A stretch of 64,000 nucleotides of DNA from Eubacteriales bacterium (GTDB taxonomy: Bacteria; Bacillota; Clostridia; Oscillospirales; UMGS1783): positions 21,233 through 85,232 of the forward strand of contig JAZQIZ010000001.1 in NCBI GenBank assembly GCA_045541395.1. The letters are read 5' to 3'. The position numbers and the translations under genes are program-made. Below the pieces are notes generated by a model. That model had not been told where the DNA came from, searched no databases, and saw only the letters and a list, made by a program, of their open reading frames with translations. Position 1 is the stretch's first letter, and every line of letters begins with the position of its first letter. Positions 27,579 to 33,660 of this stretch are shown piece by piece.

Positions 27579-27654
27579 GGAAGCTTAGCTCAGCTGGGAG
27601 AGCATCTGCCTTACAAGCAGAGGGTCACAGGTTCGAGCCCTGTAGTTTCCACCA
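27579..27654 (+). tRNA. tRNA-Val(TAC)
   Basis: 76-nt cloverleaf. Acceptor GGAAGCT/AGTTTCC, anticodon loop CTTACAA, T loop GGTTCGAGCC, encoded CCA. Confidence 0.95.
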
Positions 27655-27659
27655 AGTAT

Positions 27660-27736
27660 GGCTCCGTAGTTCAGTTGGTTAGAACGCCGCCCTGTCACGG
27701 CGGAGGTCGAGGGTTCGAGTCCCTTCGGAGTCGCCA
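27660..27736 (+). tRNA. tRNA-Asp(GTC)
   Basis: 77 nt. Anticodon loop CTGTCAC, GGTTCGAGTCC, encoded CCA. Confidence 0.95.
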
Positions 27737-27768
27737 ATTCATCCTCAAAGCGGGGATGCAATGCCCAC

Positions 27769-27844
<76 letters not shown>

Positions 27845-27848
27845 ATCT

Positions 27849-27924
27849 GCGGAATTACCTCATCTGGTAGAGCGCCACCTTGCCAAGGTGGAGGTAGCGA
27901 GTTCGAGCCTCGTATTCCGCCCCA
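27849..27924 (+). tRNA. tRNA-Gly(GCC)
   Basis: 76 nt. Anticodon stem CCACC/GGTGG with loop TTGCCAA, AGTTCGAGCC, encoded CCA. Confidence 0.9.
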
Positions 27925-27957
27925 GCGCCCACGGTAAAACGTGAGCGCGTTTTATTC

Positions 27958-28032
27958 GGCGCCATAGCCAAGTGGTAAGGCAAAGGTCTGCAAAACCTCT
28001 ATGCCCCGGTTCAAATCCGGGTGGCGCCTCCA
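27958..28032 (+). tRNA. tRNA-Cys(GCA)
   Basis: 75 nt. Acceptor GGCGCCA/TGGCGCC, anticodon loop CTGCAAA, GGTTCAAATCC, encoded CCA. Confidence 0.95.
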
Positions 28033-28036
28033 GAAA

Positions 28037-28068
28037 AAAGTCCTGTTCGAAAGAACAGGACTTTTTTC
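28037..28068 (+). terminator. tRNA operon terminator
   Basis: agtcctgttc (28039-28048) pairs with gaacaggact (28053-28062), followed by T6. Confidence 0.9.
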
Positions 28069-28072
28069 AACT

Positions 28073-28236
28073 AAATCCACCCTAACGGGTGGGTGAAATA
28101 TTGCTTCGCAATGTGAAATTCTCGCTTCGCTCGAGTGAAATCGCTGCGGCGGTGGGTGGATTTAATTTCACATTTTGCGAAAGCAAAATATTTCATAATC
28201 CGAAGGATTATTTCATATCGCATAGCGATATTTCAT
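28073..28236. repeat. Divergent array of heptamer boxes (GTGAAAT x3, then ATTTCAY x4) interleaved with mini-hairpins
   Basis: Boxes at 28093, 28113 and 28135 in one orientation, and at 28165, 28190, 28210 and 28230 in the other. Hairpins at 28077-92, 28100-12, 28142-51, 28172-89, 28197-209 and 28217-29. See finding. Confidence 0.8.
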
Positions 28237-28254
28237 TACATACAACGCTCCGCA

Positions 28255-28283: not shown

Positions 28284-28424
28284 ACGTGCAAGGTGGTGAT
28301 GTAATGTCCTTGCAAACTGTAGAAATCAATTCTGTTAAAATAACTTTCAATAACGTTTTTAGGTAGTTATAATTGGAGAATAAAAATTATTTCTTTTCAT
28401 AAACTGTACCGAGAGGTGTTTTTT

Positions 28425-28892
28425 ATGAAAATTCAATGGAAAAAACTAATAATCTGTATTCTGATTCCTTTAGCTGTTGGTGGTCTTTCTGCGTTTATTA
28501 CCAAAGATAATATGAAATTCTTTGATCAAATATCAAAACCGCCCCTAGCACCGCCGGGCTGGTTGTTTCCTGTAGCATGGAGCATTTTGTATATCCTTAT
28601 GGGTATAGCCTCATATATGGTTGTGATTTCAAATAATCCGTACCGTATTCGTACCGCTCTTACGGTTTACGGGCTGCAGCTCTTGTTTAATTTTATCTGG
28701 TCGCCCGTATTTTTTAATGCTAAGCTGTATCTTGGCGCATTCGCTATTCTATTATTGCTGCTTATTCTTATAATTTTTAACACTATACTCTTTTATAGAA
28801 TAAATAAGCTGTCAGGTTACCTCCTCATTCCTTATATTGTGTGGGTTACCTTTGCTGCTTACCTTAACTATGGCATTTATATATTAAATTAA
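28425..28892 (+). CDS. tspO: TspO/MBR family tryptophan-rich sensory protein
   Basis: Five TM segments. PPLAPPGWLFPVAWSILY and WSPVFF, the Trp-rich TspO pattern. The ATG at 28425 lies 8 nt after GAGAGG; the GTG at 28416 overlaps the SD. Confidence 0.8.
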   Translation: MKIQWKKLIICILIPLAVGGLSAFITKDNMKFFDQISKPPLAPPGWLFPVAWSILYILMGIASYMVVISNNPYRIRTALTVYGLQLLFNFIWSPVFFNAKLYLGAFAILLLLLILIIFNTILFYRINKLSGYLLIPYIVWVTFAAYLNYGIYILN

Positions 28893-28894
28893 AA

Positions 28895-28925
28895 TTAACA
28901 ACCGATTATTCGGTTGTTAATTTTG
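28895..28925 (+). terminator. tspO terminator
   Basis: ttaacaaccg pairs with cggttgttaa, followed by tttt. Confidence 0.8.
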
Positions 28926-28936
28926 TAAATAAAAGT

Positions 28937-28965
28937 TTGCAATATTTAAGATTTTATGTTATAAT
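28937..28965 (+). promoter_or_regulatory. Promoter of the HTH-glmM operon
   Basis: TTGCAA, 17-nt spacer, TATAAT. Confidence 0.7.
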
Positions 28966-28998: not shown

Positions 28999-29013
28999 GC
29001 AACTTTAAGTTGC
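28999..29013. promoter_or_regulatory. Perfect 15-bp palindrome in the glmM leader (candidate operator)
   Basis: gcaactt-t-aagttgc. The half-site aagttg recurs at 29030-29035. Confidence 0.4.
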
Positions 29014-29097
29014 ATTAATATTCAATGTAAAGTTGATAGATAATGATTTTTCATTCAGATATAATAATACTATAATTGTTGAATCGGAGGTATTTAT

Positions 29098-30714
29098 ATG
29101 ACTATCGGTGAAAAAATACTTAAACTGCGTACATTAGCTAATATCTCTCAAGAGCAACTGGCGGAAAAAATATCAGTTTCCAGGCAGTCGGTTTCAAAAT
29201 GGGAAATGGATCAGGCTCTTCCTCAGATAGATAAGGTTCTGCTTTTATGTGAGCTTTTTAACCTTACTGCAGATGAACTGCTGCAGGATAAAATACCTCT
29301 TAAATCTGTTACAGAAGGAAGAAAGCCTAATAAGTACTTTGGTACTGACGGTTTTCGTGGTGAAGCCAACGTTAACCTTACCTCCGAACAGGCTTACAGA
29401 ATAGGGCGTTTTTTAGGTTGGTTCTATTCTTCCGAGCTTTCCGGCAGTAAAAAGGCAGGTTATAAGCCCCGCATTGTTGTCGGTAAAGACACAAGACGTT
29501 CCAGCTATAACCTTGAATATTCCATTGTTGCAGGAATAACTGCCTCAGGCGCTGATGCCTATATGCTCCACGTAACAACAACCCCCAGTGTTTCTTACGT
29601 TACAAGGCAGGATGAGTTTGACTGCGGAATTATGATAACCGCATCGCATAATCCTTTTTATGATAACGGTATTAAGGTAATAAACCGTTACGGTGAAAAG
29701 CTTGACGATAATACAACTGCGCTTATTGAGGCTTATATAGATAAAGATTATGCTACGCTTGGATTAAAAGGAGATATTCCTTTGGCAACAGGTGAGCGCA
29801 TTGGTTGTATTGTTGACTATGTTGCCGGCAGAAACCGCTACGTTGCATATTTGATCTCCCTTGCTTCTCATTCATATAAAAAGCTCCGTATTGGCCTCGA
29901 CTGTGCAAACGGTGCTTCCTGGACTATCGCCGGTGCAGTATTTGGCGCTTTAGGTGCCCAAACAGTTATTTTAGGTGCCGCCCCTGATGGTATTAATATT
30001 AATAACGGTTGTGGCTCTACCCATATGGAAAACCTTTGCCGCGCAGTTAAAGAACAGCATCTTGATATAGGTTTTGCCTTTGACGGGGATGCCGACCGTT
30101 GCATTGCTGTTGACGAAAACGGCAATGTGGTTGATGGAGATGCGATTCTTTATATTTTAGGCAAACGCCTGAAGGATAGGGGAATGCTTAACGGCAATAC
30201 TGTTGTTGCTACCGTAATGTCCAACAGTGGCCTTATTGCAAGCCTTGAAAAAATAGGCGTAAAATGTGAACAGACTACGGTCGGTGACCGTTTTGTATAT
30301 GAATGTATGCAGCAAAACGATTACTCCTTAGGCGGCGAACAGTCCGGCCATATTATCCTCAAAAAGTACGCTACAACAGGCGACGGCATATTAACAGCTA
30401 TTATGCTTGCGGAAGAACTGTGTGCTTCCAAACAGTCACTTTCAAAGCTTTGTGAACCTATTACGTTTTATCCTCAGCTTATGCTGAACGTAAGAGTAAA
30501 GGATAAGGCCGCGGTACTTAATGACAGTGAAGTAAAAAAGGCCTGCAATGAAGCAGAAAAGCTTATTAACGGTAAGGGCCGTGTTCTTTTGAGAAAAAGC
30601 GGTACCGAGCCTGTTATAAGGGTAATGGTTGAAAGCGAAACCGAAGAAAAATGCAAAGAGTATGCTCAGAGTATAGTAAATACAATTGTAGAAAGAGGGT
30701 ATGGCGTTGACTAA
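29098..30714 (+). CDS. glmM: Phosphoglucosamine mutase with N-terminal XRE-type helix-turn-helix domain (fusion protein)
   Basis: aa 1-63: IGEKILKLRTLANISQEQLAEKISVSRQSVSKWEMDQALPQIDKVLLLCELFNLTADELL (HTH_3-like). From aa ~79: KYFGTDGFRGEAN, active-site TASHNP, FDGDADR, GEQSGH. No internal start or stop between the domains. Confidence 0.9.
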   Translation: MTIGEKILKLRTLANISQEQLAEKISVSRQSVSKWEMDQALPQIDKVLLLCELFNLTADELLQDKIPLKSVTEGRKPNKYFGTDGFRGEANVNLTSEQAYRIGRFLGWFYSSELSGSKKAGYKPRIVVGKDTRRSSYNLEYSIVAGITASGADAYMLHVTTTPSVSYVTRQDEFDCGIMITASHNPFYDNGIKVINRYGEKLDDNTTALIEAYIDKDYATLGLKGDIPLATGERIGCIVDYVAGRNRYVAYLISLASHSYKKLRIGLDCANGASWTIAGAVFGALGAQTVILGAAPDGININNGCGSTHMENLCRAVKEQHLDIGFAFDGDADRCIAVDENGNVVDGDAILYILGKRLKDRGMLNGNTVVATVMSNSGLIASLEKIGVKCEQTTVGDRFVYECMQQNDYSLGGEQSGHIILKKYATTGDGILTAIMLAEELCASKQSLSKLCEPITFYPQLMLNVRVKDKAAVLNDSEVKKACNEAEKLINGKGRVLLRKSGTEPVIRVMVESETEEKCKEYAQSIVNTIVERGYGVD

Positions 30715-31369
30715 ACTAGTTAAGGTAAAAGATCTGTTTTGCTGTAATACACCTTGTCTGGAGCCCCTTTTTAATTCTTGTGAATATCCGTGGGAAATGC
30801 TCCCCAAAATAAAAGAATATATTAAAGAGCTGATTGCGAACGGACTTGAGGGATTTAAAGAAATCTCGGAAGGAGTATGGGTGGGGGAAAATGTTAAAAT
30901 TTATCCTACTGCAGTTATAGAAGCTCCCGCTATTATTGGCGCAGGTACGGAAATACGCCCCGGCGCTTTTATAAGAGGTAACGTTATTACCGGTGAAAAC
31001 TGTGTTTTAGGTAATTCCTCTGAATTTAAAAACTGTGTACTTTTAAACAAGGTTCAGGTGCCCCATTATAATTACGTAGGCGATTCCATACTGGGCAATC
31101 ATACTCATCTTGGCGCCGCGTCTGTTTGCTCAAACTTAAAAACCGACGGAAAGCCTGTTGTTATTCACGGTCAAACCGATTATCATACAGGACTCAGAAA
31201 GGTCGGCGCTATTCTGGGAGACGGTGCGGATGTGGGCTGTGCCTGTGTCTTAAATCCCGGAACTGTACTTGGAAAAAACACTTCCGTTTATCCCAATAAT
31301 GCTCTTCGCGGTGTTTTCGGAAGCGATTGTATTGTGAAATCACAGACCAATATTGTTAAAAGAATATAA
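30701..31369 (+). CDS. Left-handed beta-helix (hexapeptide-repeat) protein resembling the GlmU acetyltransferase domain only
   Basis: Hexapeptide repeats (IGAGTEIRPGAFIRGNVITGENCVLGNSSEFKNCVL...). No nucleotidyltransferase domain. The start is ATG 30701 or TTG 30707, overlapping the glmM stop. Confidence 0.65.
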   Translation: MALTKLVKVKDLFCCNTPCLEPLFNSCEYPWEMLPKIKEYIKELIANGLEGFKEISEGVWVGENVKIYPTAVIEAPAIIGAGTEIRPGAFIRGNVITGENCVLGNSSEFKNCVLLNKVQVPHYNYVGDSILGNHTHLGAASVCSNLKTDGKPVVIHGQTDYHTGLRKVGAILGDGADVGCACVLNPGTVLGKNTSVYPNNALRGVFGSDCIVKSQTNIVKRI

Positions 31370-31380
31370 GGAGGCTTAAT

Positions 31381-32091
31381 ATGAGATTTATAACCGTTAA
31401 AACCTATGAAGAATTAAGTGAAAAAACTGCAAATCTTATTGCCGAACAGGTAGTTTCCAAGCCGGATTCTGTGCTTGGACTTGCAACCGGCTCTTCTCCC
31501 ATAGGCGCTTATGATTATCTTGGGGTGCTTTGCTCTAAAGGTGACGTTGATTTTTCCGAAGTCACTACCGTTAATCTGGATGAATACGTTGGCCTTGACG
31601 GTAATAATGATCAAAGCTACCGTTATTTTATGAATACTAATCTATTTTCCAGGATCAATATAGATATAAATAAAACAAACGTACCTAACGGCTGCGCTGA
31701 GGATCTTGAAAAAGAAGGTAAGCGTTACGATGAGCTTATTGAATCCTTGGGCGGTATTGATATGCAGCTTCTCGGTATAGGTCTTGATGGTCATATTGGT
31801 TTTAACGAGCCCGATGAGTTTTTTACAAAGGAAACACATCCCGTTGAGCTGGACCCTTCAACAATAGAAGCCAACGCCCGTTTCTTTGAAAGGGAAGAGG
31901 ACGTGCCCCGCAAGGCAATAACAATGGGCATGGGTGCAATTATGAGTGCAAAAAAGGTGGTTCTTATAGCAAACGGTCCTAAAAAGAAGGATATTCTTAA
32001 TAAAGCTTTTTACGGCCCTATAACCCCTAAAATACCCGCCTCCATACTTCAGCTACATCCTGATGTAACTGTGATCTACAGCGAAAACTAA
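31381..32091 (+). CDS. nagB: Glucosamine-6-phosphate deaminase
   Basis: LGLATGSSP, LGIGLDGHIGFNEP, SILQLHPD. SD AAGGAGG. Confidence 0.9.
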   Translation: MRFITVKTYEELSEKTANLIAEQVVSKPDSVLGLATGSSPIGAYDYLGVLCSKGDVDFSEVTTVNLDEYVGLDGNNDQSYRYFMNTNLFSRINIDINKTNVPNGCAEDLEKEGKRYDELIESLGGIDMQLLGIGLDGHIGFNEPDEFFTKETHPVELDPSTIEANARFFEREEDVPRKAITMGMGAIMSAKKVVLIANGPKKKDILNKAFYGPITPKIPASILQLHPDVTVIYSEN

Positions 32092-32123
32092 AAAAAAGCC
32101 CCGAATATTCGGGGCTTATATTT

Positions 32124-33410: not shown

Positions 33411-33660
33411 TGCCCTTCTCCTTTATGTGTTTAATAATATTTAAATAAAAAAGGACCATTTCACCCCTGTGTTTGGGACGAAATGCTCCGCGTTGCCACC
33501 CAATTTGACAGTAAAACTGCCCGCTCTTAGTAATTTCAGGCTTACAAAACCTACGGCTCCGAAAGCGGAACGCCTGTTCTTTGTTATCGGCTTTCACCAA
33601 CCGCCGACTCTCTGCAAACTTAAAACAAACTTATTTTTCTTCAACGCCGTATTATATTGT
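33411..33660 (-). promoter_or_regulatory. T-box leader (tRNA-sensing riboswitch) of serS
   Basis: The minus strand shows AGAGAG and GGTGAAAG stem-I elements. The T-box sequence AATTGGGTGGCAACGCGG is the complement of 33486-33503. The terminator is GGAGCATTTCGTCCC/GGGGTGAAATGGTCC followed by T6 (33447-33489). Confidence 0.85.

Follow-up and report, generated by a model that had tools for sequence, protein, structure and literature searches.

The subject of this report is a gene found in a stretch of 64,000 nucleotides (nt) from an Eubacteriales bacterium of the class Clostridia (contig JAZQIZ010000001.1, positions 21,233 to 85,232), which we will call the window. The window has the appearance of an ordinary chromosome of a spore-forming Firmicute: it contains recJ, relA/spoT, serS and spoIIE, and its GC content is 40%. 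The gene codes for a single protein which joins an XRE-type helix-turn-helix (HTH) domain to a complete phosphoglucosamine mutase, GlmM. This enzyme carries out an essential and near-universal step in the formation of peptidoglycan precursors, and in Firmicutes it is also a regulatory hub for cyclic di-AMP (c-di-AMP). The fusion is found in many related species, nearly always with a conserved palindrome upstream. Automated pipelines annotate it merely as phosphoglucosamine mutase. The original prediction, made from the sequence of the window, was not aware of any characterisation of this architecture, and a full-text search of the literature found no published account of it.

The HTH-GlmM fusion and its distribution

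The gene is divided as follows.

29098..30714, + strand: open reading frame (ORF) of the HTH-GlmM fusion, 538 amino acids (aa), ATG start, stop codon included
29098..29286, + strand: XRE/Cro-C1 helix-turn-helix domain, aa 1-63 (Pfam HTH_3)
29287..29328, + strand: linker, aa 64-77, variable in sequence and length (24% mean pairwise identity; model confidence 67-71)
29329..30711, + strand: complete phosphoglucosamine mutase, aa 78-538 (TIGR01455; match to 7ojr; Foldseek match to 3pdk_A)

A ribosome binding site, GGAGG, is found at 29085-29089, upstream of the ORF, and a 100% identical copy of the protein is present in a public protein collection. The two domains had been assigned in the original prediction, and a Pfam profile search finds both of them. 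HTH_3 (PF01381) covers aa 8-61 with an E-value of 2.1e-14 and 53.7 bits, the cut-off being 23; the HTH_19 and HTH_31 profiles are likewise above their cut-offs. The domains PGM_PMM_I to IV follow within aa 79-528 (79-217, 248-342, 346-453 and 462-528), all of them above their cut-offs.

The mutase half matches the glmM equivalog of NCBIfam (TIGR01455) over aa 81-530, with 508.5 bits against a cut-off of 447.55. All its characteristic loops are present: TASHNP (phosphoserine loop, S183), FDGDADR (metal), GEQSGH (sugar) and R-x-SGTEP (phosphate, in domain 4). The codon of the catalytic Ser183 is found at 29644-29646. When 145 GlmMs are aligned, the window protein included, residues S183, H184, D329, D331, D333, R334, E414, H418, R499 and S501 are invariant. 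The best match among sequences of the Protein Data Bank (PDB) is GlmM from Bacillus subtilis (7ojr, E-value 1.8e-127). Judged by its sequence, the GlmM moiety would be a catalytically competent mutase.

An AlphaFold2 model of the monomer, built with the 145-sequence alignment, has a mean predicted local distance difference test (pLDDT) score of 94.2 and a predicted template modelling score of 0.86. The body of GlmM has pLDDT values of 92-99 and shows the four-domain alpha-D-phosphohexomutase fold: Foldseek superimposes it on 3pdk_A and 6gyz_A with a template modelling (TM) score of 0.96 and a root mean square deviation of 1.9-2.0 Å. The HTH is modelled with pLDDT values of 79-89 as five helices, at aa 3-13, 18-24, 29-36, 44-53 and 58-62; its nearest solved structures are ImmR of the integrative and conjugative element (ICE) ICEBs1 (7t8i) and the C2 repressor of phage P22. 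No solved chain spanning both HTH and GlmM is found among the Foldseek matches.

The original prediction proposed to map the distribution of the fusion, which turns out to be widespread in gut and rumen Clostridia. The query, an alignment of residues 1-125, was run against one genome per species of GTDB, and at least 562 stretches matched. The best 80 of them, each from a different assembly, form our set of species, and residues 1-125 are covered in all 80. With tblastn the fusion is contiguous from residue 1 in 80 of 80 loci and reaches residue 535-538 where the contig allows. The carriers are nearly all uncultured Clostridia, known from metagenome-assembled genomes of ruminant, other animal and human guts, with labels such as Acutalibacteraceae, Oscillospiraceae, Ructibacterium, Congzhengia, Ca. 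Fimenecus, Faecousia and 'Ruminococcus sp.'. The fusion is a marker of an extensive clade of Clostridia from animal guts, most of them uncultured. A search in a collection of 5.8 billion proteins gives the same result: the best 120 matches all have 535-561 aa, with the same HTH and PGM domains and 76-82% identity.

The fusion does not appear among the best 150 of the 50%-identity representatives. The best ones are ordinary GlmMs of 450-462 aa, with 58-60% identity, aligned from query residue 78. In our view a non-fusion sequence stands there for the fusion clade; the absence is not evidence of rarity, because the other scans find hundreds of fusions. By the same comparison the fusion clade is compact in sequence space. 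Some of the representatives are over-long; eight of them were scanned with Pfam and none has an HTH. Four of these eight were set aside as one-off chimeras (TraG+GlmM, GlmM+helicase, YebC+GlmM and GlmM+SIS). The joins of TraG, a helicase C-terminus, YebC or SIS to GlmM are probably due to chimeric contigs or to read-through gene calls. Such chimeras show that an unusual fusion seen once in a database carries little weight, and that recurrence in several species is needed.

The junction has also been studied. The ORF contains no stop codon and no ATG, GTG or TTG start at this place, so that the single in-frame ORF of the original prediction is confirmed; the junction is likewise intact in 80 of 80 species loci. 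Residue 78 is an asparagine, at the position of the initiator methionine of ordinary GlmMs (NKYFGTDG versus M(G)KYFGTDG), and it is invariant in 19 aligned fusion sequences. An error of sequencing or assembly which had joined two neighbouring genes is hardly conceivable, because the same fusion is uninterrupted across species: the junction is unbroken in 80 independent assemblies and in all 120 best database matches, and N78 stands where ordinary GlmMs carry their start codon. A frameshift or misassembly at the junction is ruled out by the intact junction of the 80 loci.

The conservation of the three parts is very different. In the 80 species the HTH (aa 1-63) has a mean pairwise identity of 74.5%, the GlmM part one of 76.6% and the linker (aa 64-77) one of 24%. 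Domain 1 of GlmM is 88% conserved. In the HTH a near-invariant stretch, VSRQSVSKWEMDQALPQI, surrounds the predicted recognition helix. The length of the linker also varies, since the NKYFGTDG motif begins at aa 74-78, depending on the species. As HTH and enzyme are conserved to the same degree and the linker is not, these alignments indicate that selection acts on both halves: purifying selection on the HTH is the same as that on the enzyme, and the linker is free to vary.

Palindromes and promoters upstream of the fusion gene

The region which precedes the gene contains the following elements. The palindromic sites, which we will call O1, O2 and O3, are candidate operators.

28891..28924, unstranded: terminator hairpin of tspO with a 15-bp stem, the 5' limit of the regulatory region
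28925..28940, unstranded: O3, distal copy GTAAATAAAAGTTTGC, 73.5 bp (7 helical turns) upstream of O1, overlapping the -35 of P1
28937..28965, + strand: P1, promoter-like TTGCAA-17-TATAAT with a TG extension, conserved in a minority of species only
28999..29013, unstranded: O1, perfect palindrome GCAACTTTAAGTTGC, centre at about -65 from the start site of P2
29022..29036, unstranded: O2, degenerate copy TCAATGTAAAGTTGA, adjoining the -35 of P2, centre at about -43
29037..29065, + strand: P2, promoter TAGATA-17 nt-TATAAT, conserved across species

The comparison was made with the 300 nt found 5' of the fusion gene in 79 sequences, the window and 78 species loci. These regions are not all fully independent: those of loci L065 (JAZNOA01, Acutalibacteraceae) and L067 (JAZQBM01, Ca. 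Fimenecus) are identical. The O1 palindrome, GCAAC-N5-GTTGC, is perfect in 66 of the 79; in 12 others there is a single mismatch, and the remaining one has two. It is practically restricted to this position. In 846,592 bases of fetched loci there are 69 perfect sites, and 68 of them are just 5' of the fusion gene, one being an O3 copy in locus L060; the sole exception is found at position 339 of locus L061. In the 64-kb window the only perfect site is that at 28999-29013. A common genomic repeat was therefore rejected as an explanation, the motif being near-absent elsewhere in the window and in the 847 kb of flanks.

The sequences aligned on O1 give the consensus ttt-GCAACy...rGTTGC-nAAAAnt-tCAAn(N5)aGTTGn-TTGnnn-(17 nt)-TGnTATnAT, in which O2 and P2 are apparent. 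The score profile places O2 downstream of O1 at an offset of 22 bp in 49 loci and of 23 bp in 20 loci; at least 7 of its 10 positions match in 53 of the 79. The distal site is less constant. The pattern G[CT]AA[ACT]-N5/6-[AGT]TT[GA]C occurs upstream of O1 in 32 of the 79 loci, with a distance between the centres of O3 and O1 of 71.5-75.5 bp in 24 loci and 82.5-84.5 bp in 6 loci, which corresponds to seven or eight helical turns. When the score is relaxed, a site which matches at 7 or more of the 10 positions is found in the O3 zone of 44 of 78 loci; each of three control zones has such a site in only 1-4 of 77-79.

A promoter-like site whose -35 begins at O1+34 to O1+41 is found in 60 of the 79 loci; in 42 of these it has a TG extension (extended -10). 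In most species P2 matches the consensus at 9-12 of 12 positions. If transcription is assumed to start about 7 nt past the -10, O2 covers about -50 to -36 and O1 about -72 to -58, and between the two sites there is an A-tract, at the place expected for an UP element. O1 precedes the ATG by 66 to 272 nt, depending on the species, whereas the O1-O2-promoter spacing is fixed. As only the latter is constant, the sites are placed relative to the promoter and not to the coding sequence.

A terminator scan flagged O1 as a weak RNA hairpin or terminator, but merely on account of its symmetry. This was rejected: the arms are invariant and all the departures from the palindrome are one-sided, with no compensatory change, so that a protein-binding DNA site is favoured over an RNA hairpin. 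No riboswitch or glmS ribozyme was found with Rfam upstream of the fusion.

Upstream of glmM in the two nearest non-fusion contexts (58-60% identity) there is no palindrome within two mismatches. In the nearest of these relatives (locus L082, 1584-3942, 58% identity) glmM lies just 3' of genes which include a SIS-domain protein, possibly fragments of glmS, a linkage which differs from that of the fusion clade.

The operon and its neighbourhood

Two genes and a terminator follow the fusion gene in the window.

30701..31369, + strand: stand-alone LbH acyltransferase of 222 aa, with a 14-nt overlap with the end of glmM, stop codon included (Pfam Hexapep)
31381..32091, + strand: nagB, glucosamine-6-phosphate deaminase, last gene of the operon, 11 nt past the LbH gene (TIGR00502)
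32096..32117, unstranded: bidirectional terminator between nagB and the convergent serS (terminator scan)

The operon glmM-LbH-nagB is thus as it had been predicted in the window, with its gene order, overlap and terminator. The LbH protein gives 144 bits with the C-terminal half of TIGR03992 (Arch_glmU, NCBIfam) and an E-value of 2e-20 with the C-terminal domain of ST0452 from Sulfolobus tokodaii (2ggo/5z09); only the acetyltransferase half is matched. By these matches it would be an amino-sugar-1-phosphate N-acetyltransferase, plausibly a stand-alone one of the glucosamine-1-phosphate (GlcN-1-P) type, which uses the product of GlmM. This suggests that GlmU may be split in the fusion clade. 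NagB has 262.8 bits with TIGR00502 (cut-off 236.9) and stands out in an operon whose other genes look biosynthetic. If it worked in the aminating direction, we infer that NagB, GlmM and the LbH protein would catalyse three consecutive steps from fructose-6-phosphate to N-acetylglucosamine-1-phosphate, bypassing GlmS.

In other species the operon is variable. The 73 informative loci comprise 23 with glmM-LbH-nagB, 33 with glmM-LbH, 11 with glmM-nagB and 6 with neither gene (locus L001, for example). The LbH gene comes directly 3' of the fusion in 56 of the 73, and nagB is downstream in 34. The amino-sugar operon had been proposed as the target of regulation; this stands as far as the promoter of the fusion gene is concerned, which is conserved, and does not extend to the set of three genes, found together in 23 of 73 loci only. 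The constant feature across species is the fusion with its own promoter, not the three-gene operon. The synthesis of UDP-N-acetylglucosamine seems to be organised differently in the fusion clade, where nagB shares an operon with a stand-alone gene resembling a GlcN-1-P acetyltransferase.

Several other elements are found nearby. The gene tspO (28416-28892, + strand; TspO/MBR membrane protein, Pfam E-value 7e-46) is directly 5' of the regulatory region. Between tspO and a cluster of five tRNA genes (27579-28029) the orphan Gut-1 RNA motif (Rfam RF01706, gathering score 50) occurs twice, oppositely oriented and 13 nt apart: one at 28068-28146 (+ strand, 76.4 bits), the other at 28160-28238 (- strand, 53.8 bits). 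A T-box leader precedes serS at 33471-33600 (- strand), with 43.9 bits on the part within the searched range; it is an ordinary feature.

Probable autoregulation and comparison with known systems

We consider it likely that the fusion is a bifunctional protein, an active mutase which is also a direct autoregulator, probably a repressor, in which the GlmM dimer pairs two HTH domains. The original prediction had suggested autoregulation as a guess. Support for it now comes from the sequence comparison: the promoter palindrome, accompanied by two weaker phased copies, is conserved in about 80 species and is absent at the two nearest non-fusion glmM genes.

The proposed mechanism starts from an XRE-type HTH attached to the N-terminus of the active enzyme by a flexible tether of 11-15 residues. 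The XRE domain, with 63 aa, would have no dimerisation module of its own; the body of the GlmM dimer would bring two of them together. GlmM dimerises through domain 1, which is the part that bears the tether here. The two HTHs, each on its tether, would recognise the 15-bp palindrome GCAAC-N5-GTTGC, O1, and presumably its copies O2 and O3. In solved structures GlmM is indeed a dimer (PMC8573169). The distances of two helical turns between O1 and O2 and of seven or eight between O3 and O1 would place all sites on one face of the DNA and may allow cooperative binding or looping. In this way the fusion would control its own transcription, together with that of the co-transcribed LbH gene and nagB where they are present.

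If the HTH does bind these sites, we somewhat favour negative autoregulation. In most species P2 is near consensus; the A-tract flanked by the sites occupies the place of an UP element, and O2 adjoins the -35; the spacing by whole helical turns points to cooperativity or to a DNA loop; the window has a second promoter, P1, whose -35 is overlapped by O3; and the known fusions of enzyme and regulator, BirA, NadR, PutA and RbkR, are repressors (PMC5397151). All these features favour repression.

Several points weigh against the interpretation as a whole. Binding of DNA by the HTH is deduced only from the co-occurrence of domain and palindrome. The window taken alone is unremarkable when one mismatch is allowed: it has 3 sites, and 1.42 are expected. 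The non-fusion controls amount to two distinct contexts, in four loci of which three share one context. As the linker is flexible and unconserved, it is mildly less likely that the active site is coupled to the HTH by allostery. Finally, centres at about -43 and -65 equally fit the classical positions of class II and class I activation, and the arrangement of OR2 and PRM of lambda cI is similar in geometry.

Activation is therefore the alternative which survives best, although we would give it only a minor chance. The same protein and sites would activate the fusion promoter: the dimer on O2 would contact region 4 of sigma as lambda cI does at PRM, and O1 and O3 would help in loading. The weak -35 of P2 in the window (TAGATA) is in its favour, and ImmR, the nearest solved homologue of the HTH, activates its own promoter. 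However, a promoter with 9-12 of 12 consensus positions in most species, and with a TG extension in 42 of 60 loci, should work unaided. The enzyme-regulators mentioned above are repressors, and it is not obvious how positive feedback on a housekeeping enzyme would serve homeostasis.

Another question is what signal an autorepressing fusion would respond to. Feedback which depends on concentration, with no effector, is the default. A coupling to the substrate or to the phospho-enzyme is attractive but speculative. We only tentatively consider a trigger enzyme which senses metabolites or its own state: occupancy of the active site by glucosamine-6-phosphate (GlcN-6-P) or by glucosamine-1,6-bisphosphate, phosphorylation of Ser183 or capture of the GlmM dimer by CdaA might alter the engagement of the HTH with O1, O2 and O3. 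If it were true, such sensing would be a protein-based counterpart of the feedback by the glmS ribozyme in a large clade of gut Clostridia, and the flux of cell-wall precursors, possibly also c-di-AMP signalling, would be wired directly to transcription.

It is improbable that the GlmM moiety acts mainly as a sensor or dimerisation scaffold, in the manner of NagC/ROK or NrtR, with a second, ordinary glmM for housekeeping. The available sequence leaves room for it: we find no second glmM copy in the 64-kb window, which covers only part of the genome. The score of the enzyme is nevertheless higher than the equivalog cut-off for GlmM, and none of the catalytic, metal-, sugar- and phosphate-binding residues which are invariant in the 145 GlmMs is missing. 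Its domain 1 is highly conserved, and in most species its gene is coupled to that of the next enzyme of the pathway.

It is very improbable that the HTH is a protein-interaction module which tethers GlmM to a partner in cell-wall or c-di-AMP metabolism, the palindromes belonging to some other regulator. A precedent is found in RodZ, whose XRE-type HTH binds MreB. GlmM is also a known interaction hub which binds CdaA (PMC8573169, PMC6368335). On the other hand the Pfam matches are HTH_3, HTH_19 and HTH_31; the RodZ-type HTH_25 is not among them, and the HTH is followed by GlmM, not by a transmembrane segment. The near-invariant stretch around the predicted recognition helix co-occurs with a near-invariant palindrome in 78 of 79 species. 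The palindrome is missing from the non-fusion glmM promoters examined, and no other regulator gene is conserved beside the fusion.

A bifunctional, self-regulating mutase remains the reading we prefer. If GlmM is also a transcription factor, the few enzymes which regulate genes directly would gain a new member, in which both the enzyme and the class of DNA-binding domain are new. The comparative data provide a defined 15-bp candidate operator, a promoter with three phased sites and hundreds of natural variants.

The node of GlcN-6-P, which such a fusion would control, is also controlled by the glmS ribozyme, by NagC and Mlc (ROK family) and by NagR (GntR family). NagC differs in having a degenerate kinase fold, while the enzyme of the fusion is intact. 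To our knowledge the palindrome does not resemble the dre site of NagR or the site of NagC.

The canonical GlmMs of Firmicutes (B. subtilis 7ojr, B. anthracis 3pdk and S. aureus 6gyz) have 45-46% identity with the fusion, a TM score of 0.96, the same motifs and the same four-domain fold. However they lack an N-terminal extension, their sequence beginning with M(G)KYFGTDG, and the regulatory role known for them does not involve binding of DNA: they inhibit CdaA, the c-di-AMP cyclase, by protein contact. The usual neighbours of glmM in Firmicutes are cdaA and cdaR; the fusion gene is linked instead to the LbH gene and nagB.

The XRE repressors of phages and ICEs (ImmR, P22 C2, lambda cI and 434) share with the fusion the HTH fold and sequence family. 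They also have palindromes of about 15 bp with CAA...TTG cores, and multiple phased sites next to the -35. In these repressors dimerisation and the input of signals depend on a dedicated C-terminal domain, whereas here a housekeeping enzyme of 460 aa would take its place.

The closest systems in design are BirA, NadR, PutA and the archaeal RbkR, enzymes with their own DNA-binding domain (PMC5397151). As in the fusion, an active enzyme and a DNA-binding domain are found in one polypeptide, with sites at the promoter of their own pathway. The components are different, and so is the operator: here the components are an alpha-D-phosphohexomutase and a five-helix XRE/Cro-C1 domain, without homology to those proteins. 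BirA uses biotinyl-AMP as co-repressor and RbkR uses CTP/FMN, whereas the fusion is not known to use any. In the fusion a short tether, not conserved in sequence, joins the HTH to the enzyme. Regulators of this kind usually have a small number of targets, and regulators with a single target have been discussed (PMC8249747). The only candidate sites of the fusion, in the 64-kb window and the 847 kb of flanks, are essentially at its own promoter.

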